Notes: generated from the letters alone by a model not told the origin. Shown: positions 1,059-64,000, counted from the stretch's first letter. The stretch is DNA of 64,000 nucleotides from an uncultured bacterium (GCA_963843795.1 CAWJLW010000009.1:1-64000); one strand, 5' to 3'. Translations and numbers: made by a program.

Positions 1059-1199
1059 ACACACATCCTGACACCATTTCATCGAAAAAATTGCTCTATT
1101 TTCAGGCATTCTGAACACATATCTATTGCAGCGTCGAATTCTGCCTTGCAAGTACTTGCAGAAATTAAAGTTTTTGTGAACACTTGTGCTGCTCTCCAT

Positions 1200-1217
1200 T
1201 GCTAACGCGCGTTAGCA
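1200..1217. promoter_or_regulatory. Perfect 18-bp palindrome TGCTAACGCGCGTTAGCA, candidate operator upstream of the CAZyme operon
   Basis: Perfect dyad in the MFS-GH95 intergenic region. Function is inferred. Confidence 0.4.
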
Positions 1218-1389
1218 GAATATTGTTGTCGGCTTTTTGTGACAATTGTCGCGAACTCTTATCGCGAGGCAGTTTGGCGTTTTTGTCTAAATTTTATTTA
1301 CGATGAGTGATATTGTGGATAAGGTTGGCGTTAGACGGTTTCGCTGGTTCTCAATAATCGTCCGGACAGCCGTATCCCCGAAGCGACGC

Positions 1390-1421
1390 GCCAGCGCCTC
1401 GTTAAGCCAGCGCCTCGTTAA
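1390..1421. repeat. 16-bp tandem duplication GCCAGCGCCTCGTTAA x2
   Basis: Direct repeat at 1390-1405 and 1406-1421. Confidence 0.9.
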
Positions 1422-1484
1422 GATGGGCTGTTTTAGCGGTGCGAATTGATTTTTGGCCCGCAAGTACTTGGATAAAGATAAATT

Positions 1485-7597
<6,113 letters not shown>

Positions 7598-16504: not shown

Positions 16505-16911
16505 ACTTTGATTTTGAAACTTTTCACTGGCTCAGGTAGAGCAACGGACGCTCTTGGACCGGCGATGCGAAATGGAAATCGTTGGCAGGTCAGATCAGCG
16601 ATGAAGAAGCCGAAGCCGGTGTCGCCCGTCGAACGTGCAGTAATTGACGACTTATGCCGAACTTTTTTATCATGCCAAGCACAATCATCTGCTTCGTGTG
16701 ACCTCCGCAAGTACTTGCAGAGTTGCCCCACATGTAAAGTCCCAGGCACGATCATGTCCGCCGTGTGACTCTCCCTAAAATGCAAGGTTATGTTGCGTCT
16801 CAAACCCATACTTTCACGCCTTTTTTCGCCACATGGCGCGATGTTTTCGCATTCATCATTACGTTGGAAAATTGCGTTGCAAAAGGATTTCTCTCCCTCT
16901 CGACAAACCCT

Positions 16912-18177: not shown

Positions 18178-21100
18178 ATGAAACTCAACCCTCTTTTTAC
18201 AATTGCGACATTGTTAGCTTTGTTTTCTGCGGCGCAGGCTGTGCAAACCGACAATCGCGGCATTCATGCCGTGCCCGCTTCCAAGCCCCTCGTCGTCGAC
18301 GGCAAGCTGGATGATTGGGATTTGTCTGGCCAAACGCTCATCACGTATGATGTCGAATCTCTGCGCGATGTGTACTCGGCACAGGTTGCAACTGCTTATG
18401 ATGCCGATAATTTTTATATCAGTCTGCACTGGAAAGACCCGATTCCGATGGGCAACACCCACGACCCGCGCTATCAGGCCAACAAAGGCTGGGCGGGCGA
18501 TGCAGTGCAATTGCGCATCAAAACCGACAAAATTGCGCATCTTACAGCGTGGTATTACGCGACCAAGCAGGAGCCAGCCCTGCAGATTTCCTACGGCAAA
18601 AGCCTGACCGAACCTTTCGACGGCGGCGACATTCAGCTTTTTCGCACGGCAGGCTGGAAGCTGCAACAAGGCGCGGAAATGGCGTTTCTCAAAGACGCTG
18701 ATGGGCGTGGCTACGTGCAAGAAATCAAGCTGCCGTGGAGTTTGATCGCGACGCGCGCTTTCAAAGCGGGCGAGCAATTCAGCATGGGTTTGGAGCTTTT
18801 GTGGGGTGAGGCCGACTGGCCGGTTCACCGCTACGCCGATAATTTGCAACCGGGCGCGGGCAGCCGCGAATTCTTCTGGACGGCGCACGATGCCTGGGGG
18901 CCAATTTTCCTTGAACCCAAAGGCAATCTCAAGTTGCCGACGCCGTCGTGGCTTCTGGCATCGGCGACGGAAGTGGCGCAAGGCCCGGTCGAAATCAAAT
19001 ATTCGATTCCCCAGTCGGCGCGCGTTACTCTGGCAATTGATGACGCGAAAACCGGACGCCGTGTGCGCAATCTCATCGCCGCCGCGCCGCGAGAGAAAGG
19101 TGCGCACATCGAAAAATGGGACGGACTCGACGACGACGGGAAGCCGGTGGCGCCCGGGGAGTACTCTTACAAAGCGATTTACCACGACGGAATTCGCGCC
19201 AACTGGGTCATGAGTTTTGCCAATCCCGGCAACCCAACCTGGCAAACCTCAGATGGGCGCGGCGCCTTCTACGGTGACCACACTGCGCCACAGGCGGCAG
19301 CCGCCGCTGGCGAGTATGTCGCGCTCGCGGCTCCAATGGGCGAAGCGGGCCAGCACTTGATCGGAACCGATTTGAATGGGCAGCGGTTGTGGGGATTAGC
19401 AAACCTCGTGGCTTTCGATGGCGGGCGCATCTCGCTGGCCACTGACGGCAAAATACTCTGGGTGGCCTCTGAAGGCAAGCAAAGCATTATCTACCGCGTG
19501 GAAGTCGCGACCGGAAAATATGCGCCCTGGGATATGAAAGCCCTTGACGCTTCGGGCGCAGAATATCGCGTTCTCGAACTCAAAGTTTCCGATCTGCCGG
19601 GCTTGGGTGCGGATCCGAAACTCGGCGCCAACATGAGCGCGGTCGCGCTGCGCGAGCAAGTACTTGCAGTCGCTCTGGCACGCGAGAACAAAGTGAAATT
19701 GCTCGATGCCCAAACCGGAAAAACGTTGCAGGAATTGGACATCGCCGAGCCGCACGCGGTGGTTCTGGACGCGGGCAAAAAGCCGATTATGCTTTCCAAA
19801 GGCCGTCTGCGTCGCCTGAGTGAAAACGGCGCTTCAGCAGCGTTTTCCGATGCAAGCTTTCCCGATGGTTATGGCTTGGCCATCGACGCACAAGGCAATG
19901 TTTACCTTTCGGTTCGCGGCAGCGAGCAGAACGTAAAAGTCTTTTCGCCTCAGGGCAAGCTGATTCGTGAAATCGGCAAGCGCGGAGGACGCCCTGCCCT
20001 TGGAATCTATGATGAGGCGGGAATGCGAGAGCCTGCCGGTATCGCGATAGATTCGCAAAATCGCCTGTGGGTTACGGAAGAAACCATGAATCCCAAGCGC
20101 ACCAGTATTTGGGATGTCAAAAGCGGCAAGCTCATCAAAGAATTGGTCGGCACCACAACTTACGCCGGGGCCGGCAGCATCAATCCATTCGATCCGACGA
20201 TGGGCTTTTCGGACAACACGGCTTATCGCATTAACTTGCAAACCGGCGCATGGAAACCAACGTACTCACTGGCCCAAAGCTCAACTTCCGCGCACGGCAC
20301 CGATTCGCGTCACGCTGACGATTTGTTCCCGCCCGCCACGCACAACATCACCAGTAAAATCGTGAAGCGCGGCAACCTGACATACATTTACACAACCGGC
20401 AGCGCGCGCGGCGCCAATGAAACTCACGTCACGTTGTGGGATGGAAAAACGTTCCGCTCCGTCGCGCATCTGGGACAGTTGCCGCCAGCGACCAACAAAG
20501 ACCGCGAGTCCGAATGGGCCAAATATACCCATCCGTTTTTCGCTGGTCAGGAAGGCAAGGCGTATTCCTGGATTGATGCCAATAGCGATGGAAGGGTACA
20601 ACGCGACGAACTCACTTTTACCGATATTCAAGTGGATGGTAAAACCGTTTCCCTGCAAACACACTACTGGGGCCAACTGCCCGACGACGAAGGCACGATC
20701 ACCTATATGACGGGTGGCAACAATGGTACTTCCAAAAACACACTGCTCCAATTCGCTGTGAAAAGCACCAACAAAGTCGGCGCACCGCTCTATGACATCA
20801 CGCAGCCGCGTGTGTTGAAACTCGATCAACCGCTTCTCAAGCCGGGCGAAGGCATGATCGTGGGAGGAAAAGAGGGGCGCATCTACCTCAACCAAGACCC
20901 GGTTTTCACTCTCGACCGCAACGGCAAAATACTTGGCACTTATCCCAGCCATCATGTCAGCGTGCACGGCTCGCACACCGCACGGGCATCGCGCGCCGGT
21001 TACCTGATCGGCCCGTCCTCGATTTTAGGAACCGCCGACATGGGCAAAGACATCGGCGAAGTCTTTTACCTCAACGGCAACCTCGGCGAAAACTACCTTT

Positions 21101-22216: not shown

Positions 22217-23500
22217 ATGAGTTATCTACCGTTTTGGAAATTGTTAGGCTGGAGCGCCGCGCTGATTTTGGTAGGCGCGCTGGAAACCCGCGCGCAAACC
22301 GCGCCGCGCCGCGAAGTGGCGATGCCGTCGTTTCGTGATTTCGACCGTCGCGCCCGCGCGGGCGAGCGCTTGAACGTGGTGTTCTTCGGCGCTTCGCTGA
22401 CTTGGGGCGCTAACGCCAGCGACCCTCAGCAAACTTCGTATCGTGCCAACGTCGCACGTCGTTTTGAAGCGGCTTATCCGGCGGCGCATTTCAAATTCTG
22501 GGATGCGGCGATAGGTGGCACCGGTTCACAGTTGGGCGCGTTTCGTTTGCAGCGCGATGTGCTGCGCCATCATCCCGATTTGGTATTTCTGGATTTTTCG
22601 GCCAACGACGACATCACTTCCGCCGACACCGAAACGCTGGCGTCCTACGAATCTTTGGTGCGGCGCATCGTTACGCGAAGGCAAATGCCCGTTGGTGCAG
22701 GTGATTTTTCCGTTTCAGTGGAATGTAGAAAGCGGTGATTTATCGAAAATGCTGCGCCGCACCGCGCACCTCGAAATTGCGCGCGCCTACAATGTGCCCG
22801 TCGGCGATGCCATCGCGCTGTCCATAGAGCGGGTGAAAAATGGCGACACCACGCTGCAAATTATCTGGCCCATTGACGGCGTGCATCCTGGCGACACGCG
22901 GCTACCGGTTGTTCGCCGATGCCGCGTGGAGCGCGTTTCAAAAAGCCGTGGCCGAAAGAAATCGAGTGCCGCGCGCCCGCGAAAATGCTTTATCCGACGA
23001 CTTATCTGCATTGGAATCGTGGGCGCATTTCGCAACTGGGGGCGCTGCCGGTCGGCTGGAGCGTGGGCGCGCCGCATCGCGTTGCGGCGTACTTCGATTT
23101 TCTGATGTCGCGCTGGTTGGACGATGAAGTTGTCGCCACCAATCGCGCTCAAAATGTGGCGCAGGAAGTCGGGCGTTTGAAAGTCAATTTTCGCGGTTCG
23201 ATGGTGATGCTGCTCGGCGAAGCCACGCCCCAAAGCGGAAAATATCGCGCCTACATCGACGGCGCATTGATGCAGCACACGCAAGACGGCAAAATGCTGG
23301 GCGAATACGATCCGGGCAGCTTCGCCCGCGCTCTCAATGGCAACGGACATCATGTGCAAGTACTTGCCCATGGCTTGGATACCAACACGATGCACACGCT
23401 GGAAATCGAACCGGTTTTCGACGCTGACAGAGCGCAGGAGCTGCGTCTGGAAAGCATTTGCGTGGCGGGCGCAGATGCTTTCGTCGCTCTTCAACATTGA
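22217..23500 (+). CDS. SGNH/GDSL hydrolase with C-terminal accessory domain, broken by three +1 frameshifts (about 22673, 22898, 22955)
   Basis: FFGASLT, IGGTGS, DFSAND, DGVHP motifs spread over four overlapping ORFs. The first and last ORFs share one frame. Confidence 0.8.
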
Positions 23501-24100: not shown

Positions 24101-24531
24101 TGACGTCTCCTTTTTACTTGTTTCGAAGTTGCGGACAAGCGAACAAGGGTACGGTCCCACTTCATAACTATTGCTCTTATTAGCCATGCTTGATTGCGTG
24201 TGCTATGTCGGTTCTGAATTTTGCAGCGGCAAAGCTGTAAGCAAGTTGTAGCAATGCTCTTCAAGGGCAAGAGTTAGGTCAAATAGCAATGCAGCGCATT
24301 CACGAAACCAAAGGGTTTCCAGAGGTATGGACCGGAGCGAAAGCGTTCGAACCTGGCCAGCATGCACCTTAGCAATTTCCTGTTGTGTAAATGTTGATAC
24401 TTTTGAAGAAATCCAAGCCCAAATCGCCCCGATTTTCGGTGATAATAAGTTGGCGCAAGTACTTGCTGTGTGAGATGAAGGCTTGCCGAAAATCAAACAA
24501 AGGCTAAACGGTGGTAAGCCGGGAAAAAGAA

Positions 24532-24990: not shown

Positions 24991-25237
24991 TACGCGTATC
25001 GCTTCCATGCGATTTCAGCAAACGAAGACAGTTGGATACAAGATACATTTTCGGCCTCGCATCTCAGGCAAATAGCCTACGATGGCCATGATTATACGGT
25101 GCGCTGACGCGGGTTGAGCGCGCAGAATTCGCTAATATGTGCTTCACCCAAGCCAGCGCCTCAACAAAATTCCTTTGGCGCACCGGCGACATGCCGCCTG
25201 AATCTCACGATTTGCCACTACAACCTCACTGATAAGT

Positions 25238-25275
25238 CAAAAAGCGCGCTGCAAGTACTTGCAGCGCGCTTTTTG
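25238..25275. repeat. 38-bp perfect palindrome centred on GCAAGTACTTGC, with A/T tails (terminator-like)
   Basis: CAAAAAGCGCGCTGCAAGTACTTGCAGCGCGCTTTTTG. Confidence 0.95.
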
Positions 25276-25586
25276 GTTGACATGTTAAATTTGGCATTTC
25301 AGCAAAATACACAACTAAAATACTTGTATGGTAATAGCGAAGCGTAGCCAAGTGGCAATATACATTCGCAGTTGGCTTTAAGGAAACAGTGCCACAGGTG
25401 ATCGTCACCGCGCCATCGGCTTATCGGCAATCAAAGACGAAATCCTGCCGCACGACCAGTTGTAAACCGGTTGAATAATTCGGAAACTGGCGCGAAACAA
25501 GCTTTTTCCGTTCGAAAGCCTCCTGCGACCAAAGCTTTGCGGCCTTCTGCATCAGATGATGCAATAAGCATAAAAGGAATATTGAT

Positions 25587-28720: not shown

Positions 28721-28953
28721 AGCCCCGAGACAGGCGTTTTTAGCCGTCGTCGAACCGCCAACCTGGAGCTTTGAAACGACTTTGTCAAAGCTGTGACCTT
28801 GTGTCGATACAATTCGAAATATTGGCTTTGTGTGCCGCTCCCAAAACTGTCCATATTTGGTTCGTTCTACACTTTGAAATGTGAAAAAGGCGTGCTGTGA
28901 TCAGAAAATTTCGTGTCGGGGATTAAAGTTTCAAAGCTTGGCTATGCAAAACG

Positions 28954-28995
28954 GCGAAAAAGTCGTCTGCAAGTACTTGCAGACGACTTTTTCGC
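28954..28995. terminator. 42-bp perfect palindrome centred on GCAAGTACTTGC, between convergent genes
   Basis: GCGAAAAAGTCGTCTGCAAGTACTTGCAGACGACTTTTTCGC, 19 bp downstream of the 29015 stop. Confidence 0.85.
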
Positions 28996-38217: not shown

Positions 38218-38267
38218 AATCGTCCTCGATGCGGTTATCGGCTGCTGCAAGTACTTGCAGCGTACTT

Positions 38268-41200
38268 TTATTCTTTAGTTACCGTTTCATCCAAGTTCAA
38301 CAGCACGCGTGCTAAGGTTGTCCACGCCGCGAGTTGCGGCAATTCCTCGGGCGCTGGTTTTGGGGCGCTTTCGGGAAGCGCGCTTTCGGAGAGCGCGACT
38401 TTGGATGCGTCCAATTCGCCATTCGTGAAGCGCGCCAGCTGCTTCTGGTAGAACGCGGTGAGTTGAGCAAGTTCGCTCGCGTTGGGTTCGCGCGTCACGC
38501 ACAAGCGAAAAGCGAAGCGAATGCGTTCATTTACATCAGGCGATTTTTGGGCCACGATGCGGCGCGCCATCGCTTGCGCGGCTTCGACGAAAACCGTGTT
38601 ATTGAGCGTGGTCAAGGCTTGCAGTGGCGTGTTGGATTTGTTGCGGCGCGGACAACTGGCATCGGCGGTTGGCGCATCGAAAACCGTCAGGCTGGGATAC
38701 GGACTGGTGCGCTTCAAAAACGTATACATTCCGCGCCGATAGCGATTTTCGCCCGTGCTGGTGTTCCATTGCATCGCGCCATAAGATAAATCGGTCACGC
38801 CCGCGGGCTGCGGCGGAAACACGCTCGGCCCGCCAATTTTGGGCGATAACAAACCGCTCGATGCGAGCGCAATGTCGCGCACGATTTCGGCTTCGACACG
38901 AGCGCGCGGGCCGCGCGCCAGCAGAATATTGAACGGATCGCGCTTGAGCAATTCCGGCGTCACCTGCGATGATTGGCGATAGGTGGCGGATGTGACAATC
39001 AGGCGATGCATCGCTTTAGAACTCCAGCCGCGCTGCATCCATTCGGTCGCCAGCCAATCCAACAATTCCGGATGCGAAGGCGCTTCGCCCATCACACCGA
39101 AATCTTGAACGGTATTCACCAGACCGCGCCCGAAAAACGTCGCCCAATCGCGATTCATCACCACGCGCCCGACGAGCGGATTTTCGGTTGAAACCAGCCA
39201 GCGCGCCAGAGCCAAGCGATTCACGGGCGCATCTTTAGGCAACGGGTGCAAAATGGCGGGCACGCCCGGTTCGACGGTCGCACCGAGATTAAGAAATTCA
39301 CCCCTGCGATGAATTTTCGTCTCGCGCGGCACGCTGCGCTCGCTCATTACGAGCGTGGTTCCATAACGCGGCATCGAATCGCGCAAAGCTTCTGTTTTCG
39401 TGTGCTGCGCGCTCAGAAGCGGCGTGGTGTCCAGAAAATATGCTTTTAAGGTGGCATTTTGTGCTGCATCGCGCTGCGCCTTAGGCGTAAGTAAAATGCT
39501 TTCGATGGCAGCAGGCACGCCGGGCGGGCTCCAGGTACTTGCTGCGAGATTGGGCGCGTCCGTGACCGAAATGCGCAAGCGTCCGATGTTTTCCTGCTGA
39601 TGATAATTTTGCAACAGGGAAACCAACAAGCGTGCGCCTTTGGCACCCGTGAGCGGCGTTTTGAAGCGAAAAATAATCGTGTGTGCGCGTCCATCGCCGC
39701 GCGGCATTGTCCAATGGGTATCGTGTTTGCCGTCGATGGCAGCGGACGCATTAGAACCAACATCCGCGCTGGCGCTTTGTAATTCAATGGGAGCTTCGCC
39801 GCTGGCGACAGAAAATTCGCTCAATAAAAAACCGCCTTCGGGATTGCGACCCGGCCCTTGACGGGGCAAAGTCGAATCGGGCAGCACTTCTAAACGCAGG
39901 GCCGTAACACTCGGCAAAGTGTTGGCAAATTCGAGTTTGTATTCGTCACGATAAAAGTTATCGCCGCTGAACAGCAGCGAATTATCTTCCAATTTCGTGA
40001 TGCTCGCGCCGTAATTGCGGGCAAATTGAATCGGTTCCAATGTCGTCCAAGACGCGATCTTCGGAGCCAACTCGCGTTCCCATTGCATCATTTTTGTGCT
40101 GAGAAATTGCGCGCGTTGCGAAGCTTTTCCGGCTTCATCAGTTGGAATGGGCGTTTTTGGCGTATTATCGGGTACGGAGATACGGAATTTGCCCAATGTG
40201 TGCTGCGGGTAATTTTGCGCCAGTGTGACGGTAAAAACTGTGCCACCTGCGAAGCCAATCGTATTTTTAAAATGCAGTATTGCGCTACGATTCTGATTGA
40301 AATTGCCATCGCCCGCAATTGCCCAACCAGTGTTGAGATCGCCGTCGATAGCTTTTTCAATACCAAAATTTTGCTGTGAAAAATCGGCTTCTGCGCCGCT
40401 CAAAACCAACTTTTCCGCTTCGCCGCCGTTGCGCGGTGCAGCGGAAATTTCAATCTCCGATAACACAAAGTTGCCGTTGCCTGCCTCGCCCGCGCGCCCT
40501 GGACCGTTGTGAGGTAAAGCGGCATCGGTGAGAGCTTCCAAACGCAGTGCAGAAACTTTGGTCAAAGAAGTCTCGAAACGCAGCGTATAAGTATCAGTGG
40601 GCGCTGAATTGCCCGCGACTTGAATTGCACTGTCTGCAAGTACTTGCAGCGTGGCACCTGAAGTTGCAGTCGCTTGAATCGGTGCAAGTACTTGCCATTC
40701 GTTTGAAGCTTCTTCCAGCGGAAACTCGCGCTCCAGATTCGTCCGCAGTTGGTCGAGTTGGGTTTGAATGGCGGCGCGTTTGGCGGTGACTTCAGGCGTT
40801 GGAATTTCCAATACGGGTTCGTCGGCGTTGTTGAGCAGCGCCGTAAACGCATAATATTCGCGCTGGCTGAACGCATCGTATTTGTGGTTATGGCAGTTGG
40901 CGCATTGTAATGTGACGCCCAAAAAGGCCGCCGAAGTGGTTTCCACGCGATCAACTAAGGCCTTCTGGCGGAACTCTTCAACGTCGATTCCGCCTTCTTC
41001 GTTGAGCATCGTATTGCGATGAAAGCCAGTCGCGATGCGTTGCGAAAGCGTGGCATTGGGCAGCATATCGCCCGCGATTTGTTCGATAGCGAACTGATCG
41101 AACGGCATATCGCGATTGATGGCGTCGATGACCCAATCGCGATACGGCCAGATGGTGCGCTCGCGGTCTTTTTCGTAGCCGTTGGTATCGGCGTAGCGCG

Positions 41201-42126: not shown

Positions 42127-42271
42127 CAAGTTGCTTGGACTGCACAAAGGTTCTTTGAACAATTTTTAGCCACAATGGTTGTGAGTGACTGGTTGCAAGT
42201 ACTTGCAGAGTGGGTTGGTTTACTGGGAGCTTGAATGAGGTCAGTTTTATTGGAGAGTTTGAACTGTGAGG

Positions 42272-48901: not shown

Positions 48902-48933
48902 ATAATCTTCTGCAAGTACTTGCAGAAGATTAT
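48902..48933. repeat. 32-bp perfect palindrome centred on GCAAGTACTTGC in a divergent promoter region
   Basis: ATAATCTTCTGCAAGTACTTGCAGAAGATTAT. Confidence 0.95.
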
Positions 48934-49037: not shown

Positions 49038-52000
49038 ATGACACTTCGTAAACAAACATTGCTTTTTACAGGCGCGACTTTGCTGGCGCTTTTGGGCGTT
49101 TTATTTGGCGTGTCTTCGACGCTTTTGCAGCGCAATTTGCGCGTGGCCGAAGACGAAAACGCGCGGCAGATTTCTGCCAGCGCGCTCAATATCTTTCAGC
49201 AGGAAATCAAGCAATTCAACGCTAAATTTTTGGACTGGGCGGCGTGGGACGATGCTTATGCCTTTGTCGTCGATGGTAACCCAGCGTTTGTGAAATCGAA
49301 TTTATCGGGGCAGTCGTTGGATATTTTGCGCCTCAACCTGATGGCGTTCGTGCAACCTTCGGGACGCATCGTCTGGGGTACGATGTCCGATGCCAAAACC
49401 CGAAAATTCATACCGGTTTCTGCTGCCATCCAAGCCTACTTTCGGCCCGGAACTCCTCTGCTCTCTTTCAAAAACACCAACGATAGCCATCAGGGAATTT
49501 TGATGTTGGCTGGTGGCCCGATGATGGTTTCGGCGCGTCCGATTTTGACCAGTAATCAGAAAGGCCCGATTCATGGTTATTTCGTCGTCGGGCGCACTCT
49601 CGATGACGTGGAAATTCAGCGTTTGCAGTCCACAATGCGTTTGGGGCTGGCTTTGAAGCCACTTCAAAATTCGGATTTGCCTGCCGATTTTCAGCGGGCG
49701 AGGCAAGTACTTGCCGCATCTGCCAAGCAGAGCTTCGTACAGCCGATTGATGAAAACCGCTTGGGCGCTTACTCGGTTGTCAACGATGTTTTCGGGCAGC
49801 CCGCGCTGCTGGTTCGCGTGGACGTGCCGCGCACAATCTATCAGCAAGGGCAAAGCAGTCGACGCGGATTGATATTTTCCATCTTAGTGGTGGGACTGGT
49901 TTTCGCTGCGGTGACCATGCTGTGGCTCGAGAAAAATGTGCTGTCGCGACTGGCGAATTTTAGCGACAACGTGGCTTCGATTGGCGAAAGCGGTGACTTG
50001 TCCAAACGCCTTGAAATTGCGGGACACGATGAACTGTCGCGCGTGGGCGGAGCGGTCAATCAGATGCTGAGCGACTTGCAACGCTACGAAAGTGAGCGTG
50101 CTCAAAACGCCGAGCAACTGCGCGAGGCCAAGGAAAGCGCCGAAGCCGCCAACCGCACCAAAAGCGCGTTTCTGGCGAGCATGAGCCACGAAATTCGCAC
50201 GCCAATGAACGCAGTGATAGGCATGTCAGATTTGCTGCTCGACACTTCTTTGTCGCGCGAACAACAGGAATACGCGGAAATCGTGCGCAGCAGCAGCGAA
50301 TCTCTACTCGCCATAATCAACGATATTCTCGATTTTTCCAAAATCGAAGCCGGACGCATGGAATTGGAAAGTCGCGCGCTCGATCTGCGCGATTGCATCG
50401 AGTCGGCTTTCGATGTGATTTCGGCTAAGGCTGCGGAAAAGAATTTGGAACTAGCTTTTGCGGTCGAACCCGATGTGCCGCTCGCCATCTTGGGCGATGT
50501 GACACGTTTGCGTCAGATCTTGATAAATCTGCTGGGCAATGCCGTCAAGTTCACGCATCAAGGCGAAATCGTGCTTTCTGTTTCCTGCAAGTACTTGCAG
50601 GGAAACTTTTACGAATTGGATTTTGCGGTGCGCGACACCGGAATCGGCATCGCGCCCGAAGGCATGGAGCGTTTATTTCAATCGTTTAGTCAGGTCGATA
50701 CTTCGACAACGCGCGAATATGGCGGCACCGGTTTGGGTTTGAGCATCAGCTATCGGTTGGCGCAATTGATGGGCGGTGAAATGTCGGCGCACTCTGATGG
50801 CCTCGGCTATGGCACCACGTTTCGCTTTTCCCTGCGTGCGCACGCGGTGCCGCTGCCACCCGAACGCGAACGTCTTCTGGGTCAGCAACCGCATCTCGAA
50901 GGCCAGCGCATTTTGCTAGTTGACGACAACGCGACCAATCGCCGCATTCTCACCCTGCAAACCGAATCTTGGGGCATGAATGTGCGCGCTACGGAATTTC
51001 CAAGTGAAGCACTGGAGTGGATCGAGCGCGGCGACCCGTTCGACATTGCGATTCTCGATATGCACATGCCACAAATGGATGGCGTTGTCCTTGCGCGCGC
51101 CATTCGCAAAAAGCGCGACGCCGCCACTTTGCCGCTCATTATGTGCACATCGCTGGGCCGCAACCCAAGCGATGTGGCCGCTGTGGAATGGGCCGCTTAT
51201 CTCACCAAACCGGTTAAACAATCGCAAATGTTCAACGTGCTGGCCGAAATTTTTGCTTCCGAAACGGAAGAAAAGCTGGCTATTTCCGACGATAACCGGG
51301 TTCTCGAACGACAACCTTTGCAAATTTTGCTGGCCGAAGACAACGCGGTGAACCAGAAATTGGCGCTGCGTTATTTGGAGCGTATGGGCTACGGTGCCGA
51401 TATCGCCAACAACGGACGTGAAGCCCTTGAAGCGTGCGAAAAGCAGCGTTACGACGTGATTTTGATGGATGTGCAAATGCCGGAGATGGACGGTTTGGAA
51501 GCCGCGCGCCGCCTATGCGCGCGCTTTGCGCGTCCCAACCGCCCGCGCATCATTGCCATGACCGCTAACGCGATGGCAGGCGACCGCGAAAACTGTCTGC
51601 AAGCCGGTATGGACGATTATCTCACCAAGCCCATTCGATTGGAACAACTGCGCGCGGCGCTCCAAACGGTGCAGCCTGAAGCAAATGGTGAAAACGAAGC
51701 CGCAAAGCCGTTGCAAGTACTTGCAGCCAAGCCAAGCGCGGAATCATCACCCGAAGCCGCAATTTTGGATAAAGAAGTTTTGGAAAGCTTGCGCACATCG
51801 ATGGGCGATGAATTTTTCATTGAACTTCTCGACGTTTTTTTGCTCGATTCGCAAGCCATGCTGGCGGATTTATCGAGTGCCGCGCAAGCACACGACATTG
51901 AAACTTTGCGTTTAACCGCTCACACCTTAAAATCTAACAGCGCCAGTTTTGGCGCGACCGAACTGTCGCGCTTGTGCTCCGATTTGGAACACAATTATGG

Positions 52001-53267: not shown

Positions 53268-56228
53268 TTACAATGGGCGCACCACGACGGGACCAAGCAA
53301 ACCGGAATCAAAAATTGGCCATTGCGAAGCATCGAAGGGCTTGTAATTGATATTCACGACATTGGCATCGCGAAAAATGCGCCACGGCACTTTGCGCTGA
53401 TCAAGATCGCGGATTCGATTGGCCGCCAGGTTGGTAACTTCGATTTCCAGCAGGTTGTCTTGCGCCTGCAAATTTTCCAAACGGATGCGATACGGATGCA
53501 TCAATAGCGTGCCGATTTCTTGGCCATTTAACCTGACCCGCGCGCTGTGACAAACTTCGCCCAAATCTAACAGCCAATCTGATTTTTGACCGTTCGGAGT
53601 ATCAGGCGCGTCGAACGTTGTCGAATAAAGTGCCGTGCCACTGAAACTTTGGGTGCGAGCGTCGTCACGGTTTGTCCACGAAGCGAGCGTTGAAGTTTGG
53701 AACGGTTGCGGCAGTTGCGGGCCGCCTTCGAGAAAGCGAACTTGCCACAGCTCTTTAACAGCAAAGGCCCCCTTTTGCGGGGCGTCGAAGGAAAAGTGCG
53801 CGCCGCGAATTGGGGCACTGCGATAAGTTCGCAGCAAAAGCGAGTGACCGGGTTCGATGCGCAGCGCTACGCGCTGAGTGCCATCCGCATTCAGCTGCAA
53901 ATCAGCGGTTCCTGTGCGTCCGCTCATTGCGTCCATTACAACAGCCGAGCGAGCGCGCGTGCCTAAATTCACTTCACCGTCCAAAATCTCCGTCCCTTGA
54001 TTAACGATGAAATAACACCAGCCGTCATCGTGCGCTTTGCGAATAAATTTAATGCCCTTGTGATCGACAATCGGCTCGCGCGCCACACCAGCCTCCTGCA
54101 ACAAGGATTCAAGTGCACCCGCAAGTACTTGCCCACGCCCCCAGGCCGCTCGATTGAGTTCGGGAGCGTTGGTCGCGCGACCGATTGGCTGAAAATCGAG
54201 CTGGTCAAGAAGCGTTTTCAATTCTGCTCGGCGCGTGGTTAAATCGGCCAAGCCGGGAACATCGGTGGGCAAGCCGTCTTGAAATAAAATCGTGCAGCCT
54301 TGTCGGGCCAAATCGAGCAGTTTTTCCAAAGTAGGAAAAGGCATTAAATGCGCCGAGGGCACAACAATCACGCCATAATCGCCGCCCGCCACGCGAATTT
54401 TTTCTTCACTGGCGGAAGCGCTGGACAATTGGCGGTCGGAGATATAATCGAAGCCGTAACCGCGCTCCCACAAGGTTTGCGCGGTTTTGCCAAGCGGTTG
54501 CTCGGTCAGCCATTCGTGATTGTGAACCGTGAAAGTGGGTGCCAGTTTGGGATTGCTGTGCCACAGATCGTGGATAGGCCAATACAGCAGCACGTCGTTG
54601 TCGGGGCGGGTGGATTGTAAAATCGACTGACAGCGCGCGAGATATTGGTTCAAAGCCGGAGCATCGTGCCAGATTGGATTACGCGGATTCATTTCGGTCG
54701 ATGCATAGAAAACCCAGCCCGGCCACTCTGCATCGTTGGGCGAATAGCAGGTGCCGTGATAAACGATTCGATTGATGCCCGAAACCAGCATTAAGTCGGC
54801 CATGCACTTCAATTCTTCAAGCGTCTCACAAAAGTGTTCGGCCATCCACGTACCGGTTTCGGCAGTAACGATGCGACGACCCGCGACATGAGCAGCCGAT
54901 GACGCGAATTTGCTAATTAAGGGATTGCGGTCGCCTTCGCCAAAATTTTCGTCGAAGCCTGATGCGAGCGGATCGCGCGTGCCTCTGCCGAACATTTCAG
55001 TTTCGGGCATATCAGCCAGCGCATACACATCGAGCAGATTGGCAGGCGAACCGTGCGCTTGATAACGGACCTGCATGCCGCGCGCGTGGCACCAGCTCGT
55101 CCATTGTGAAAAAACATCTTCAATCATCAAATCAGAAAGTGTCTCGTTATAATCGCAGCGCAAGCGTGCAGCGGAATCACTTTTGTAATCGTCGAACGAG
55201 TCATCGGTGGCAGCACACAAAAGTGGCAGTTGCTCTTGCAAATTGTAGCCACGCCGATGGGCAAAAGCGGCGGGCAACTCGGGCGACCAGTTGGAGTTGT
55301 ATTCGTAGGAATCCTGGAACATCGCCCGGGGTAAAGCGCCCTTGTATTCGTCAAAGGCCTGCGTGAACTGTTCCAGAAAACGGCTCATTGCACCCGGCGA
55401 CATCGGATTAATCATCGGGCCCACTCCGCCCGGCGCCGCGCGTTTCACCATTGGGCCATCAGCCTTGGCGCTTAGAAGATAAAGTTTCCAGGCCAGCGCG
55501 CCCGCTTCCCAATCAAGTTCGCCATCGGCGTTGATGCGCGGTTTGAGATCGACCTGATCGCCATTTGCAGAAACTGCCATCAGCGCTTGAACTTCTGTGG
55601 CAATGAGTCGCTCGGTCAACTCTTCTCCGGCGGAAATTTCAATGGCACGGGTATGAATGTGCCAGCCGCCATCTTCGCGCGTTGTTGTTGGCCCACCAAA
55701 ACACCAGCCGGTGCCCGTCGTCATATCAACGCCGAGTCCCAAACGATTGGCTTCGACAATGGTAAAATTCAGCATCTCCATCCATTGCGGGCTGAGATAT
55801 TCGATGTCGCGGTCTTCGGCGCCCAGAGTGCTGTAAATCGGAATGATATGAATTCCGCCCAGCACGCCGTCGCGGTAGCGCTGTAATTCGCGCGACAAGT
55901 TTTCCTTATCGACTGCGCTGCCATGCCACCAGTTGAAAGCCCACGGACGCGCGCTATCAAGCACCGGCCAATTCAAAGCGCCCGCAAGCGCCTCTGCGGA
56001 CGCCTGAGCCACGCTTTCTCCAATGCCCTTTTCGGCGGTTGCTTTTATCGCGGATTGGCCGGGCGCGGCATTGCCTTTGGGCACCGACAAGGCTACCGCG
56101 CCCGTCACAACAGCACCGGCAACACCAGATTTAAGCAATTGGCGACGACTCACTTTATCACTGTCACGCGTTTTCTCACGTCCTGCCGAGCTATCAGTTT
56201 TGATGCTTTCACCTCGAAGAATTTCCAT
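53268..56228 (-). CDS. GH106 alpha-L-rhamnosidase-like protein, Tat-exported
   Basis: SRRQLLK, RPWAFNWWHGSAV, TGTGWCFGGP, DSYE, QAHG, PETE, SGLLGPV. Start position uncertain. Confidence 0.88.
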   Translation of the reverse strand: MEILRGESIKTDSSAGREKTRDSDKVSRRQLLKSGVAGAVVTGAVALSVPKGNAAPGQSAIKATAEKGIGESVAQASAEALAGALNWPVLDSARPWAFNWWHGSAVDKENLSRELQRYRDGVLGGIHIIPIYSTLGAEDRDIEYLSPQWMEMLNFTIVEANRLGLGVDMTTGTGWCFGGPTTTREDGGWHIHTRAIEISAGEELTERLIATEVQALMAVSANGDQVDLKPRINADGELDWEAGALAWKLYLLSAKADGPMVKRAAPGGVGPMINPMSPGAMSRFLEQFTQAFDEYKGALPRAMFQDSYEYNSNWSPELPAAFAHRRGYNLQEQLPLLCAATDDSFDDYKSDSAARLRCDYNETLSDLMIEDVFSQWTSWCHARGMQVRYQAHGSPANLLDVYALADMPETEMFGRGTRDPLASGFDENFGEGDRNPLISKFASSAAHVAGRRIVTAETGTWMAEHFCETLEELKCMADLMLVSGINRIVYHGTCYSPNDAEWPGWVFYASTEMNPRNPIWHDAPALNQYLARCQSILQSTRPDNDVLLYWPIHDLWHSNPKLAPTFTVHNHEWLTEQPLGKTAQTLWERGYGFDYISDRQLSSASASEEKIRVAGGDYGVIVVPSAHLMPFPTLEKLLDLARQGCTILFQDGLPTDVPGLADLTTRRAELKTLLDQLDFQPIGRATNAPELNRAAWGRGQVLAGALESLLQEAGVAREPIVDHKGIKFIRKAHDDGWCYFIVNQGTEILDGEVNLGTRARSAVVMDAMSGRTGTADLQLNADGTQRVALRIEPGHSLLLRTYRSAPIRGAHFSFDAPQKGAFAVKELWQVRFLEGGPQLPQPFQTSTLASWTNRDDARTQSFSGTALYSTTFDAPDTPNGQKSDWLLDLGEVCHSARVRLNGQEIGTLLMHPYRIRLENLQAQDNLLEIEVTNLAANRIRDLDQRKVPWRIFRDANVVNINYKPFDASQWPIFDSGLLGPVVVRPL

Positions 56229-56497
56229 AACCAAAGCGAATCTTTTGTGCCGCTGATTCCTTTTTACGCGGCAGCAAGTACTTGCTACTGCCCTGGCTTT
56301 ATGCTCCGCCTGCAACGTTGTTTTTCAGAAGTGGTTCGTGTTTTAAAATGCGTTGCTGCTGAAGCGCGAGCCACAGCAAAAAGAATGGCACAACGCGCTC
56401 AGGCAAGCAACATTACCCCTGTAAAGAATGCGGCGATCAAATGTTCTGCGCCAGCATTGCATCAGGATTCTCTGTGCCGCCGTTGGGTGTAATGAGG

Positions 56498-58722: not shown

Positions 58723-58752
58723 AAAGGCCGTGCAAGTACTTGCATGGCCTTT
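58723..58752. repeat. 30-bp palindrome (one G.T pair) centred on GCAAGTACTTGC
   Basis: AAAGGCCGTGCAAGTACTTGCATGGCCTTT. Confidence 0.9.
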
Positions 58753-59040: not shown

Positions 59041-59613
59041 ATGAAACCTCCGACGCGCACCGAGTATTCGCAGCATTTTCAGGTTCTAAATGTCGGAGAT
59101 GCGCGCGGCGAATTGCTCCTTCGAATCCGCCCGATTGCGCCGGATGACGAGCAACGATTGATCGATTTCTTCCGCTCGCACACTGCCGCGACGATTCATT
59201 TGCGCTACGGCATGATGATGCGCGAAATGTCGCACCAAAGGGCGGCGGAATTGGTGCGGCTCGACGGCCACACCGAACTGGCGCTCATCGCCCTCGATGG
59301 CCCGACCGATGCCGAACATATCGTGGCTGTCGGGCGCTATTTTCTGGATGAAGCGACGAATCTGGCCGAAGTCGCTTTTGTCGTGCATGAGCAGTATCGA
59401 GGTCTGGGCATCGCCACACATCTGCTGCGCCAACTCGTGCAGGTAATGCGCGACAAAGGCTTTTCCGGCATCACGGCGCAAGTGCTGGAAGAGAACAATT
59501 CGATGCTGCAAGTACTTGCCGAAGTGCTGGGACGCGCCGACCAAACCACGTCCGGCAGCGGCGAAACGACCTTAATTTATCGGTTCAAAAACAGCGAATC
59601 AAAGCCGCTTTGA
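59041..59613 (+). CDS. Stand-alone GNAT acetyltransferase (Pat-type GNAT domain)
   Basis: IRPIAPDDE, VAVGRY, AEVAFVVHEQYRGLGIAT, VLEENNSML. Confidence 0.88.
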   Translation: MKPPTRTEYSQHFQVLNVGDARGELLLRIRPIAPDDEQRLIDFFRSHTAATIHLRYGMMMREMSHQRAAELVRLDGHTELALIALDGPTDAEHIVAVGRYFLDEATNLAEVAFVVHEQYRGLGIATHLLRQLVQVMRDKGFSGITAQVLEENNSMLQVLAEVLGRADQTTSGSGETTLIYRFKNSESKPL

Positions 59614-59635
59614 GCCTGTTGCCCGACTTGACCAT

Positions 59636-60751
59636 ATGATTCAATCCACGATCCTCACGGTCAACACCGGCAGTTCCTCCGTCCGATTATCGGCCTTCCG
59701 TGCCGATCAAGACGAGTTGTGTTTAATCGCAACCGAACGCTTGGACACTCAAGCGGGCGAGCCAGAAAAACTTTTGCGCGCGTTTTTACAAACGCACGAT
59801 TTGAAAAATATTTCCATCGTGGCGCATCGCATTGTACATGGCGGCGCACATTTCACCAAACCAACGCGTTTGGATGCTGAATCCGAACGCGCTATCGGTG
59901 AACTTTCTCATCTCGCGCCGTTGCACAATCCGCGCGCGTTGCGCTGGATTGCCGTCTGCCGCGAAGTGCTGGGCGAGCAAGTGCTTCAAATCGGAATTTT
60001 CGACACCGCGTTTTTCGCGCAATTACCCGCCGTGGCTGCGACTTACGCGCTACCGCACGAACTGTGCGAAAAACACGGCATTCGGCGTTTTGGTTTTCAC
60101 GGTCTGGCGCACAATGCGATGAACCGGCGCTGGCAGCAAATCAGACCGCAACTCGAAAAGGGAGGGCGCGTGATTTCGCTGCAACTGGGTTCTGGCTGCT
60201 CCATCACTGCAAGTACTTGCGGCGTGCCACAAGATACGTCGATGGGCTTTTCGCCGCTTGAAGGACTCGTGATGTCAACGCGCAGCGGCGATGTGGACGC
60301 CGGAGTACTCGCGTTTTTGCAACGCGCGGAGAATCTTTCGCCGGACGATTTGGAATCGCTGCTGAACTCGAAATCGGGCTTGCTGGGCGTTTCCGACCTC
60401 AGCGGCGATATGCGAGAGTTGCTGGAGTCCGATACGCCCGCAGCGCGTCTGGCGGTGGAACTGTATTGCTATCGCGCGCGCAAATATATTGGCGCGTATC
60501 TGACGGTGCTGGGCGGCGCTGATGCCATTTTATTTGGCGGCGGCGTGGGCGAAAACGCCGCGCCCATCCGCGAACGTATTCTATCTGGTCTGGAATGGTG
60601 CGGCCTCGTTTTCGACCGTGCGGCCAACGTTGCCGCGATAGGTAGCGAAGCCCGCATCAGTACGCCGGGAAGTCGCATTGAGGCGTGGGTCGTGCCGGTA
60701 GATGAGGCGCAAGTACTTGCACAGGAAGCTATCGCCGCGCAGACGAAATGA
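59636..60751 (+). CDS. ackA: Acetate kinase
   Basis: [44 protein letters not shown]. Confidence 0.96.
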
Positions 60752-63185
60752 ATGATGCCGAATCACAAAAAACTATGCTGACCACAACCAGACCGCCCGA
60801 AGTCCAACAAATTTTAGATGCCGAAGAATTGCGTCTCACCGATGCTTACTGGCGCGCGGCGAATTATCTGTCGGTCGGGCAGATTTTTCTGTTCGACAAT
60901 CCGCTGCTCAAGCGCCCGCTGATGGACGCTGATGTCAAACGCATGCTGCTCGGGCACTGGGGCACGACGCCGGGGCAGAACTTTATTTATGTCCATCTGA
61001 ACCGCGCGATTAAGAAATACGACCTCGATATGATTTACGTTTCCGGCCCCGGTCACGGTGGCCCGGCGGTGGTGGGAAATGTGTATCTCGAAGGCACTTA
61101 CAGCGAGGTTTATCCCGAAATCAGTCAGGACGAAGCTGGATTGCAGAAGCTGTTTTTGCAGTTCTCGTTTCCCGGCGGCATTCCCAGCCACGTTTCGCCC
61201 GAAACGCCCGGCTCCATTCACGAAGGCGGCGAACTGGGCTATTCGCTTAGCCATTCGTTTCGGCGCGGTTTTCGATAATCCCGACTTGATTGTGGCGTGT
61301 GTCGTCGGCGATGGCGAAGCCGAAACCGGCCCGCTGGCGACAGCGTGGCACTCCAACAAATTTCTCAATGCAGCAACCGATGGCGCAGTGCTGCCGATTC
61401 TGCATTTGAACGGTTATAAAATCGCCAATCCAACGCTTTTGGCGCGTATTCCTCGCGAGGAATTGGAACAGTTGATGCGTGGCTACGGCTGGGAGCCGCT
61501 TTTTGTCGAAGGCCACGAAGCCGAACCGATGCATCAGAAGATGGCCGCGACGCTCGATATTGCCATCGAGAAAATCAAAAGCCTTCAAGAAAACGCGCGT
61601 GTGAATGGCGACACCGCGCGACCGCGTTGGCCGATGATTGTGCTCAATTCGCCCAAAGGTTGGACGGGGCCGGAAGTCGTGGACGGACTGCAAATCGAAG
61701 GCACCTTTCGCGCGCATCAGGTGCCGCTGCATCCGCACGCGCATCCCGAACATTTGAAGCTGCTCGAAAATTGGATGCGCAGCTATCGGCCCGAAGAACT
61801 GTTCGATGAAACGGGCCGATTGAACGCCGATTTAGCGGCACTCGCGCCCGAAGGCGCGCAGCGTATGGGCGCCAATCCGCACGCCAACGGCGGTCTGTTG
61901 CTGCACGATTTGAAGATGCCGGATTTCCGCGATTACGCCGAAGACGTGCCGTCGCCGGGCGTGCGCGGCATCGGCGATACGCACGTCGCGGGCCGTTTTC
62001 TTCGCGATGTCGCGAAGCTCAATCAGGCGCAGCGCAACTTTCGCGTTTTCGGGCCGGACGAAACGCTTTCCAACGGTTTGGAAGCGCTTTTCGATGTGAC
62101 CGAGCGCCAATGGGAAGGCGAGACTGTTCCCAATGACGAGTTTCTCGCGCCGAGCGGGCGCGTGATGGAAATGCTCAGCGAGCATCAGTGCGAAGGCTGG
62201 CTCGAAGGCTATTTGCTCACCGGGCGGCACGGGCTTTTCAACTGCTACGAGGCGTTCATTCACATCATCGACTCGATGTTCAATCAGCACGCCAAGTGGC
62301 TCAAAGTCACGTCGGGTTTGCCGTGGCGTCGCCCGATTGCCTCGCTCAATTATCTGCTGGCTTCGCACGTCTGGCGGCAAGACCACAACGGTTTCACGCA
62401 TCAAGACCCCGGATTTCATCGACCACGTCGTCAACAAAAAAGCCGAAGTCGTGCGCGTTTATCTGCCGCCGGACGCCAACTGCTTGCTCTCGGTCATGGA
62501 TCATTGTCTGCGCAGTCGGCATTATGTCAACGTGGTGATTGCAGGCAAGCATCCGGCTCCGCAGTGGCTGACGATGGACGCTGCGGTCAAGCATTGCACG
62601 CAGGGTATCGGCATCTGGCAGTGGGCGAGCAACGATCAGGAAGTCGCGCCCGATGTGGTGATGGCGTGTTGCGGCGACGTGCCAACGCTGGAAACGCTCG
62701 CCGCCGTTTCGATTCTGCGCGCGCATCTGCCCGACCTCAAAATCCGCGTCGTCAACGTGGTTGACTTAATGCGACTTCAACCGGAAAGCGAGCATCCGCA
62801 CGGCCTGAGCGATACCGATTTCGACGCGCTTTTCACCAAAAGCACGACGGTCATTTTCGCCTTTCACGCTTATCCGTGGTTGATTCATCGCCTGACCTAT
62901 CGCCGCACCAATCACGACAATATCCACGTTCGCGGCTACAAGGAAGAGGGCACCATCACCACGCCTTTCGACATGACAGTGCTCAACGAACTCGACCGTT
63001 TTCATCTGGTGATGGACGTGATCGACCGCGTGCCGCAAACCGGCGAACGCGGCATTTATCTGCGCCAGCAACTGCGCGATAAGCTCATCGAGCACAAGCA
63101 ATACATCCGCGAAAATGGCGAAGATATGCCGGAAATCCGCAACTGGAAATGGGAGATTCCTCATGAACAAACAAGCTCTGCTTGA
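60748..63185 (+). CDS. xfp: Xylulose-5-P/fructose-6-P phosphoketolase with two +1 frameshifts (about 61260 and 62415)
   Basis: [53 protein letters not shown] across three overlapping ORFs. Confidence 0.95.
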
Positions 63186-64000
63186 TACCGCAACCGCGCT
63201 TATGGCCGCCGACAAAGGCTTGCTGGCGATGGACGAGAGTACTCCGACCTGCGACAAGCGTTTCGCTGCACTCGATATTCCGCAAACCGTCGAAATGCGC
63301 CGCGCTTATCGCGAACTGATTGTCACCACGCCCAAACTCGGCGAATCGATCAGCGGCGCGATTCTCTTCGATGAAACGATTCGCCAGCACACTAAAGAAG
63401 GCAAGCCGTTCGTGCAAGTACTTGCCGAGGCCGGAATTATTCCCGGCATCAAAGTGGACGCGGGCGCTAAAGATTTGGCCGGTCACGCGGGCGAAAAAGT
63501 CACCGAAGGTCTGGACGGGCTGCGCGAACGACTGGCCGAATACGCGCAAATGGGCGCGCGTTTCGCCAAATGGCGCGCGGTGATCGCGATTGGCGACGGC
63601 ATTCCCAGCCGCGCGTGTATCGAGGCCAACGCGCACGCTCTGGCGCGTTATGCCGCGCTGTGTCAGGAAGCCGAACTCGTGCCTATCGTCGAGCCGGAAG
63701 TTTTGATGGACGGCAATCACACGCTCGAACGTTGCGCCGCTGTAACTGACGAAACGCTGCACACGGTTTTCGATCAGCTTCACGTGCAAGGCGTGATGCT
63801 CGAAGGCATGCTGCTCAAGCCCAACATGGTCGTCGCGGGCTTGGATTGCCCGCAGCAGGAAAGTATCGAAACCGTCGCCGATGCGACGATGAATTGTCTT
63901 TTGCGCAACGTGCCCGCTGCCGTTGCGGGCGTGGCGTTTTTGTCGGGCGGACAATCCGCCGAACTCGCTTCGGCGCGCTTGAACGCGATGAACGTGCGCT
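63163..64000 (+). CDS. Class I fructose-bisphosphate aldolase, 3'-truncated by the window edge
   Basis: Own translation from ATG 63163: [49 protein letters not shown]. Confidence 0.95.

Follow-up and report, generated by a model that had tools for sequence, protein, structure and literature searches.

Background

Genome-wide sequence tags as dense as the one treated here have, in the literature covered, been described for Neisseriaceae, Pasteurellaceae, and cyanobacteria. The present study concerns the 12-bp palindrome GCAAGTACTTGC of an uncultured bacterium, found in the first 64,000 nucleotides of contig CAWJLW010000009.1 (C9:1-64000, the whole stretch of DNA analysed, hereafter the window) and followed through the 4.30-Mb genome GCA_963843795.1 (G000; 11 contigs, 92% complete). 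Judging from the names given to close homologues of one of its proteins, the organism belongs to the family Abditibacteriaceae (phylum Armatimonadota).

Concerning the closest described systems, the uptake signal sequence (USS) of Pasteurellaceae occurs at about 0.5-1 per kb, originates by point mutation, is under-represented in acquired DNA, is reused in terminators, and is accompanied by helically phased AT tracts (PMC3458573, PMC7811141). The DNA uptake sequence (DUS) of Neisseriaceae exists in dialects around a shared core and in inverted arrangements in terminators (PMC3630211), its spacing of 1.1-1.5 kb matching the size of conversion fragments (PMC2397512). In cyanobacteria, the highly iterated palindrome HIP1 (GCGATCGC) and its alternative forms reach hundreds to thousands of copies per Mb, with non-random spacing and an orphan methyltransferase (PMC4390886, PMC5861425); the density ranges from 300 to 2,700 per Mb in genes and spacers (PMC4390886), and interpretations include a link to orphan methyltransferases (PMC4390886), a structural role (PMC5861425), and a palindromic or methylated uptake signal (10.1101/2024.09.10.611283; PMC13756078). 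In Campylobacter jejuni, a palindromic site (RAATTY) and the methyltransferase CtsM decide DNA uptake (PMC10046745).

In G000, a sequence-specific force maintains roughly one site every 1-1.5 kb, creates new ones through point mutation, and favours flanks with an AT/GC cycle of 10.5 bp. The 12-mer may be the central part of a tag by which self-DNA is recognised in natural transformation, akin to USS, DUS, or HIP1, and may later have been reused as a terminator hairpin; to this preferred reading a probability of roughly 0.45 is assigned.

Abundance and distribution

A first-pass annotation of the window had reported 29 exact copies, and this number was confirmed (span 1148-63425), none arising in 100 dinucleotide shuffles of the window; its division into about 17 coding and about 12 intergenic copies shifted slightly, to 18 in coding sequences (CDS) and 11 intergenic according to our own gene calls. 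In a genome-wide k-mer count against a Markov null, the enrichment proved not to be confined to the window: G000 contains 2,567 exact copies, present on all 11 contigs (597 per Mb), versus 1.9 expected under an order-5 Markov model of the masked genome, i.e., an enrichment of about 1,400-fold. Forms with a single mismatch number 486 (around 19 expected), perfect copies being dominant.

The 3.6-Mb contig C6 carries 2,279 sites at a density that is level on both sides of the GC-skew turn and lies between 47 and 83 sites per 100 kb, the exception being the island-rich first bin (30). Seven small contigs have 7-35 sites per 100 kb versus 63 on C6, and the two largest copy-free gaps of the genome are islands rich in insertion sequences (IS), 26 kb each, with no copy at all. 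Sites of SlmA, Noc, and matS number in the tens and are biased with respect to origin and terminus. A nucleoid-occlusion or macrodomain site of this type, to which the palindrome had first been likened on account of the SlmA site, is not supported, as the sites are evenly distributed over C6 without such a bias.

An assembly artefact is ruled out by a short-read contig from run X1 (which may be the source sample of the assembly), spanning the copies at 2219 and 2362 with one differing letter and no gap, and by the presence of the same core in other genomes: it occurs about once per kb in a second genome of the genus and in unrelated metagenome contigs (around 70% DNA identity). Literature searches on the 12-mer, on AGTACT palindromes, on uptake or palindromes in the lineage, and on GTAC methylation in the phylum (mostly non-subscription papers) yielded no description of the tag. 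The initial view of a genome-wide, lineage-specific signal comparable to HIP1, DUS, and USS, and not a mobile repeat, is likewise supported.

Flanking sequences

The flanks, initially described as unrelated between copies, share a GC-rich stretch, A/T tracts around 15 bp from the centre, and an AT/GC cycle of 10.5 bp; the extension of the consensus to (C)TGCAAGTACTTGCA(G) holds, with T at position -1 in 66% and C at position -2 in 68% of the arms. Counted from the core, A/T tracts recur every 10.5 bp with a relative amplitude of 0.25 in CDS and 0.22 between genes, the corresponding values being 0.01-0.04 for three control palindromes and 0.04-0.07 around A-tracts chosen as anchors elsewhere. 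Arms without the first tract display the cycle as well; it reaches 60-80 bp around the core, within genes too. GC minima lie at offsets 15, 26, 36-37, 46-47, 55-57, 67-68, and 79-80, with an amplitude declining from 5.7% to 2.1% and 1.1%, and the left and right distal arms are uncorrelated (rho 0.02). Among the relatives (see below), the palindromes of genus g6 and of the JAABU contigs exhibit the same phase more weakly, G006 exhibits a shifted phase near the noise limit, and the asymmetric tag CAGCCACG possesses a strong one-sided GC cycle of 10.5 bp that is undiminished to an offset of 87 bp. A phased pattern of this kind is what a core-centred DNA-bending protein would select.

These arms bear on the main alternative, viz. 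an abundant protein within the cell that would have the core as its site, bend or wrap about 130-160 bp of DNA, and organize chromosome units of about 1 kb, even spacing and curved flanks being selected. GC minima at half-integral turns are the geometry of nucleosomal DNA, and the minima in G000 are nucleosome-like in this respect. The anchoring of the A/T cycle at the motif, alike in CDS and in arms lacking the first tract, the independent contributions of the two distal arms, and the flat density around the chromosome point in the same direction, and a structural role has been argued for HIP1 as well (PMC5861425).

The arms are also reminiscent of the gyrase motif of E. coli, a symmetric pattern of about 130 bp with GC cycles of 10.75 bp (PMC6379681), and each family genome with a match contains a single type IIA topoisomerase A gene, with no second one in the class. 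It is nevertheless very improbable that the sites are strong DNA-gyrase sites, in which GTAC would be spanned by the staggered cut of 4 bp and the C-terminal domains of GyrA would be wrapped by the arms: the gyrase motif has a degenerate core, its A/T runs (near offsets 19, 30, 39, 50, and 61, as estimated by eye from supplement DS10 of PMC6379681) differ from those of G000 (15, 26, 36, 47, and 57) by a phase shift of about half a turn, and the DNA-binding region of GyrA is alike in tag-bearing and tag-free genomes. Most Abditibacteriaceae GyrA proteins (in G000, C6:1262972-1264333) contain an insertion of 11-16 residues close to where the breakage-reunion domain ends, which G003 and G017 lack; as a reader of the tag it was rejected, being situated outside the N-terminal DNA-binding region and not following the tag.

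Spacing between sites

Coding copies shun intergenic ones, with 0.08 per kb within 100 bp versus 0.41 at 1.5-2.5 kb; at up to 150 bp from a gene end, densities are 0.10 next to a gap that contains a copy and 0.24 next to a copy-free one. Under a null that keeps intergenic sites fixed, pair ratios amount to 0.65-0.71 at 200-1,000 bp in G000 and, below 400 bp, to 0.16-0.28 in G009 and 0-0.2 in G006, and the coefficient of variation (CV) of the spacing is 0.71 in G000 (null 0.85), 0.52 in G009 (0.88), and 0.50 in G006 (0.76). When the null allows one site per gap, the genome-wide CV is barely lower than expected (0.82 vs. 0.84), such that the CV alone is not decisive; gaps above 4 kb number 71 versus 121, and pairs at 300-1,000 bp have a ratio of 0.63-0.69.

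Close pairs are phased at around 10.5 bp in G000 (Rayleigh Z 29, n = 237), their spacers being unrelated: spacings of 39-42, 34-37, and 44-47 bp are represented by 31, 1, and 8 pairs in G000 and by 16, 1, and 2 pairs in G001, the second genome of the genus. Genus g6 has almost no close pairs. Sites avoid one another below about 1 kb, and close pairs share a helical face; a second nearby site adds little, with saturation at about one site per kb. The phased pairs and the low CV in G006 and G009 would suit a wrapping protein too; in-phase pairs could, however, also be produced by shared curved flanks.

Placement and hairpins

Our gene calls in G000 (3,534 genes, 86% coding) were made with a simple script on an assembly with split genes, and place 1,793 copies between genes, 763 in CDS, and 11 on a gene edge. 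A copy is present in about half of the longer intergenic gaps and in 67-69% of the convergent gaps of 30-200 bp. The density of coding copies drops to 0.12 per kb, versus around 0.25, in the fifth of genes with the strongest codon bias. Clusters of sites that would mark an autoregulated gene were not found in G000.

Intergenic arms covary, are often self-complementary, and end in A and T tracts; coding arms pair no more than expected. By sequence, 191 of 298 convergent, 251 of 1,222 tandem, 38 of 266 divergent, and 9 of 763 coding copies are terminator-like, and many intergenic copies have, by this measure, been turned into hairpins with T tracts, i.e., putative terminators. The covarying arms with their T tracts and the convergent copies would agree with a motif that is only a favoured intrinsic-terminator hairpin. 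As sole cause this is refuted by the CDS copies, whose arms do not pair, and it is further contradicted by the low shares among tandem and divergent copies, by phased arms and spacing that hold in CDS, and by the presence of a Rho-like gene; overall, this explanation has very little probability.

Core duplications, either tandem or overlapping, with spacings of 10, 12, and 13 bp were observed in 52 cases (at most one mismatch; e.g., C6 543417 and 1491270). Together with long perfect palindromes in gaps, they suggest template switching at hairpins.

Origin of the coding copies and effect on proteins

Coding copies are distributed over the three reading frames as 499, 148, and 116. The motif codons are used by 507 of 570 QVLA peptides (0.4% expected) and by 116 of 134 ASTC peptides (0.2% expected), and in the proteins of G000 these two peptides are 13 and 35 times commoner, respectively, than their permutations. 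The signal acts at the DNA level and bends the proteome.

In codon alignments, AGTACT stands opposite AAGTACTT sites of G000 in 10 of 15 cases in JAABUK contigs, 14 of 31 in JAABUM, 2 of 4 in JAABUR, 5 of 11 in G001, 1 of 22 in g6, and none of 45 in relatives without an AGTACT tag. In comparison with the latter, 33 of the 45 sites are gap-free, with an amino-acid identity of 0.32 at the sites versus 0.61 in the background. Sites have mostly arisen by point substitution at tolerant places, are old in the lineage, and are switchable in place from one dialect to another.

Long perfect palindromes and occasional tandem core duplications between genes might also be expected of a spreading repeat served by a transposase linked to repetitive extragenic palindromes (REP) or by the single-strand nuclease Ssn. 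This is the least probable of the explanations weighed here: the coding copies, 763 in number, are mostly gap-free in alignments and lie at shared orthologous positions, and the sole Y1_Tnp gene of G000 is flanked by REPs of its own, GTAG-type. Ssn/SRM systems are defined by a single-domain GIY-YIG gene flanked by the repeat (PMC11893778); the two GIY-YIG matches of G000 (92% complete) are multidomain proteins of the UvrC type, without a single-domain Ssn gene or an Ssn-type repeat, and the Ssn-like gene of G009 has different repeats. This latter gene (G009:C1:3071806-3072021) is of the single-domain GIY-YIG type and is bordered by hairpin repeats of the GTCATTCTGAG type, which number 41 in 260 kb. 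The Y1 transposase locus (RAYT-like, G000 C6:751600-753300) possesses GTAG-footed REP doublets, with 30 REP words in the genome.

Dialects and range in the family

The proposed survey of relatives gave a divided result: the exact 12-mer is nearly absent elsewhere (0-3 copies in each of the 30 other genomes of the class), but related tags exist within the family. AAGTACTT is found 2,965 times in G000 and 2,725 times in G001, and at most 110 times in 399 other genomes sampled from the phylum. Dialects were derived from sampled DNA of the relatives. Palindromic forms are CAAAGTACTTTG in G001, CAAGTACTTG in metagenome contigs, TCGAGTACTCGA in G009, G015, and G019, and GAGTACTC in G012; G006 has a 24-bp palindrome, AGTACGGTCGA-WW-TCGACCGTACT, of which often just half is retained. 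For an asymmetric tag, CAGCCACG, the copy number is 2,676-3,503 in G007, G016, and G018, other family genomes having no more than 529; its arm is one-sided, without clear strand bias in the sampled stretches. In total, 10 of 27 family genomes carry a tag, i.e., six an AGTACT-core palindrome, one the 24-bp palindrome, and three the asymmetric form. Copies of the latter lie within long open reading frames (ORFs) in 94% of cases in G007; it may represent a dialect or a separate system.

Six of the 31 class genomes have a high genome-wide AGTACT count (2,813-4,733), and AGTACT is nearly purged in many others (1-15 copies in genus g5). In a FastTree of GyrA, a single-gene tree without G001, G014, G024, and G028, tag-bearing genomes fall into three branches, G000 joining the tag-purging genera g2 and g5 (support 0.91). 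GTAC is almost purged in these two genera (e.g., G005, G008, G014, G016, G042); it was found at 0.00-0.04 of expectation in samples of G005, G008, G014, and G016, with one AGTACT copy in 6 Mb in G005. The 15 residual AGTACT sites of five purged genomes share no common locus. Pooled DNA samples from tag-free clades, 73-224 kb apiece and covering these clades in part, revealed no hidden tag; the anchored phase scan also missed the positive control and thus had little power.

Gene content and candidate readers

G000 possesses comEC, comEA, a dprA-like gene, pilB/pilT, and minor pilins, as well as signatures of MutS and MutL. No reader protein was identified among the candidates, i.e., histone fold, RHH_1, HU, EbfC, GyrA, GIY-YIG, and methyltransferase. 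The histone fold (PF00808) is found in none of the 31 class genomes, other wrapping proteins lying outside that search, an RHH_1 match is absent from G000, and HU and EbfC exhibit no tag-linked differences by eye. HU (C6:985654-986061) has a long tail rich in Lys, Ala, and Pro, as in most family members. A shortlist of small proteins by codon bias was uninformative, the bias being weak.

One orphan beta-class N6/N4 methyltransferase (Pfam N6_N4_Mtase) is encoded in G000 (C6:2517365-2518135), and C5 and D12-class methyltransferases are absent. The orphan enzyme was found in 13 of 18 other family genomes, broken in two and without a conserved neighbourhood. Among the genomes tested it is present in eight of nine that bear a tag (not found in G016) and intact in five of 11 that do not, the enzyme occurring in tag-bearing and tag-free genomes alike. 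Against solved structures the best E values are about 1e-36 to 1e-28; searches of PDB, NCBIfam, plasmids, phages, and the Atlas did not resolve its target.

That the core is a repair or replication signal marked by methylation (for strand discrimination or a SeqA-like reader) and written by the orphan methyltransferase at GTAC or AGTACT, a single signal per kb being sufficient, seems unlikely. In its favour are the enzyme itself, the MutS and MutL signatures, the link of HIP1 to orphan methyltransferases (PMC4390886), and the near-purge of GTAC in tag-free genomes (four samples), which indicates that something reacts to GTAC. On the other hand, the enzyme is also intact in tag-free genomes and was not found in tag-bearing G016, CAGCCACG contains no GTAC, and the relatives of the methyltransferase in databases are 31-36% identical. 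Among the three causes named in the first-pass annotation, both uptake and DNA wrapping by a protein agree with the spacing and with the phased flanks, whereas a pure methyltransferase or repair ratchet fits poorly, because it predicts neither of them and because the orphan methyltransferase does not track the tag. A methylation signal may still form part of uptake or of wrapping.

Uptake or wrapping

An uptake tag is inferred because the palindrome agrees with uptake sequences in every genomic test except sequence and symmetry, i.e., in copy number, point-mutation origin, frame bias, absence from acquired DNA, terminator reuse, and the presence of competence genes, and because a site adds little when the fragment already has another. 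A DNA-uptake receptor or a processing step would bind the core and bend the DNA; fragments with a good site would be taken up and recombined more often, such that sites would spread; one site per fragment would suffice, leaving an exclusion zone of 0.4-1 kb; and changes in the reader would give rise to dialects.

For comparison, DUS were analysed in 35 Neisseria loci (680 kb) picked around inverted pairs, and USS in 60 of 122 Pasteurellaceae-type prophage loci (those with at least 5 sites and a GC content below 50%), USS spacing being set against a simple exponential null. USS exhibit three phased AT troughs, all on one side and within offset 34, and their close pairs are less numerous than under the exponential null (7 vs. 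22 and 11 vs. 25). Phasing and spacing alone therefore do not exclude uptake, although both are stronger and longer in G000, and their shorter version in USS, which have no known intracellular reader, speaks against a wrapping protein.

Several observations weigh against an uptake tag. Known DUS and USS are not palindromes, whereas the tag of G000 is a perfect palindrome of another sequence and four dialects differ in both halves symmetrically. No uptake receptor was found, and comEC is present in 30 of 31 class genomes, tagged or not. In the DUS control, an exclusion zone was lacking (pair ratio 0.87-1.05) and phasing reached no further than the noise limit, the USS control is limited to prophage loci and its simple null, and the amplitude at offsets 34-66 is 0.029 for the tag of G000 and 0.065 for CAGCCACG versus 0.002 for USS. 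Furthermore, a gap adjoins 12 of the 45 aligned sites versus 9% in the background, and this minority may not be plain substitutions.

As an explanation of the symmetry, the length of the arms, and the phasing of pairs, a wrapping protein is no worse than uptake. Against it, none of the proteins considered qualifies as a candidate (histone fold, RHH_1, HU, EbfC), and 17 of 27 family genomes lack such a tag in the tests run, many of them being purged of AGTACT. Abditibacteriaceae with a sequence-addressed chromatin, in which a species-specific core about once per kb would be accompanied by 130-160 bp of wrapped DNA, are a tentative proposition; a positioning code, consisting of the core, the 10.5-bp arms, and even spacing, would then have entered the genes at the expense of protein sequence, and its core would have changed repeatedly, in three branches of the family on the GyrA tree.

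Copies in the window

The copies in the window are listed in Table 1. Folding yielded z values of -5 to -9 for four copies with complementary arms, and of +0.9 and +1.8 for two mid-gene copies. The G001 orthologue of the GH95 gene has AAAGTACTT at the codons matching the copy at 2219, and lacks a counterpart of the copy at 2362; one X1 contig has T in place of C as the last base of the copy at 3833. The copy at 36690 closes the window's longest copy-free stretch (7.7 kb, 28981-36689). As had been noted initially, no cognate gene was recognised in the window, and an Rfam scan of it gave no matches.

Table 1. Exact core copies in the window and hairpin elements built around them (window coordinates; z, folding score)
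Feature	Position	Basis or remark
Core, intergenic	1148..1159	exact match, own gene calls
Core in GH95 gene (1485-3857 +)	2219..2230	exact match; X1 short-read contig cover
Core in GH95 gene	2362..2373	exact match; X1 contig cover
Core, GH95 gene 3' end, self-complementary arms	3833..3844	exact match, own gene calls
Core in GH127 gene	5904..5915	exact match, own gene calls
Core in GH127 gene	7471..7482	exact match, own gene calls
Core, intergenic, divergent genes either side	16707..16718	exact match, own gene calls
Core in 1338-aa gene	19656..19667	hairpin not beyond chance, z +0.9
Core in predicted CDS 22985-23500	23356..23367	exact match, own gene calls
Core, intergenic	24455..24466	exact match, own gene calls
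A-tract / perfect hairpin / T-tract element, core 25251-25262	25237..25276	terminator-like on both strands, z -7.2
Core, last codons of GDSL-lipase gene, centre of long hairpin	27417..27428	z -6.7
Long hairpin with inner A/T tracts, convergent genes, core 28969-28980	28952..28997	z -8.9
Core, intergenic, directly past stop codon	36690..36701	exact match, own gene calls
Core, intergenic	38247..38258	exact match, own gene calls
Core in DUF1549/DUF1553 gene	40636..40647	exact match, own gene calls
Core in same DUF1549/DUF1553 gene	40684..40695	48 bp from copy 40636..40647, out of phase
Core, intergenic	42195..42206	exact match, own gene calls
Hairpin between divergent kinase genes, core 48912-48923	48902..48933	z -5.3
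Core in hybrid histidine kinase gene	49703..49714	exact match, own gene calls
Core in hybrid histidine kinase gene	50587..50598	exact match, own gene calls
Core in hybrid histidine kinase gene	51713..51724	exact match, own gene calls
Core in GH106 gene	54121..54132	no hairpin, z +1.8
Core, intergenic by own gene call, yet within longest ORF	56274..56285	exact match
Core, intergenic, complementary arms	58732..58743	exact match, own gene calls
Core in GNAT gene	59508..59519	exact match, own gene calls
Core in acetate kinase gene	60209..60220	exact match, own gene calls
Core in acetate kinase gene	60709..60720	exact match, own gene calls
Core in predicted CDS 63163-64185	63414..63425	exact match, own gene calls

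An IS remnant with HTH_Tnp_1 and integrase-core pieces is situated at 35129-36451, within the copy-free stretch, and at 7604-10829 a GH10 xylanase domain extends over two overlapping ORFs, probably through an assembly frameshift or a broken gene. In low-GC phage contigs (IMG/VR, GC 38-45%), GTGCAAGTACTTGCAC-type palindromes occur several times per 10 kb, some of them near purine-rich stretches on the opposite strand; these are probably operators of phage regulators, in unrelated hosts.

Comparison with known systems

In this soil phylum, gains, losses, and dialects are found inside one family, with palindromic, long-palindromic, and asymmetric forms of similar spacing and flank geometry. Should the palindrome be a true uptake tag, bacterial mate choice would have originated here independently, through a receptor that reads palindromes, and the tag would provide the key to transformation of these organisms; should its reader act within the cell, the palindrome would be a code that positions bacterial chromatin. 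In either case, sister lineages with and without a tag permit a search for the reader by comparative genomics, and the tests for an exclusion zone and for phasing are applicable to HIP1, whose function is still debated.

The tag of G000 resembles USS in density, point-mutation origin, avoidance of acquired DNA, terminator reuse, phased AT tracts, and a reduced number of close pairs. USS are asymmetric with a one-sided arm that fades by around 35 bp, whereas the core in G000 is palindromic with two arms reaching to 60-80 bp; moreover, this tag has another sequence and belongs to another phylum. With DUS it shares species-level dialects on a common core, use in terminators, and a spacing of 1-1.5 kb, but DUS are not palindromic, their reader ComP is known, and their control lacks an exclusion zone. 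Compared with the RAATTY site of CtsM, which is 6 bp long and degenerate, the core in G000 comprises 12 bp and is enriched about 1,400-fold.

Equally to HIP1, the tag is a palindrome in genes and spacers with lineage-specific replacements and non-random spacing, and its density is inside the range of HIP1. It differs by its sequence (core AGTACT), by the phylum, by a methyltransferase that occurs with and without it, and by the lack of a link to GATC or CGATCG (0.47 and 0.20 of expectation, respectively, in G000). The periodicity of HIP1 is reported at 10-90 kb (PMC5861425/PMC4390886), whereas the exclusion in G000 acts below 1 kb; literature on helical phasing around HIP1 was not found in the papers covered. 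New here are the exclusion below about 1 kb, the close pairs on the same helical face, and the AT/GC cycle of 10.5 bp over 60-80 bp. The tag of G000 works like USS or HIP1 but belongs to neither, and its exclusion zone and long phased arms could mark a new chromatin code.

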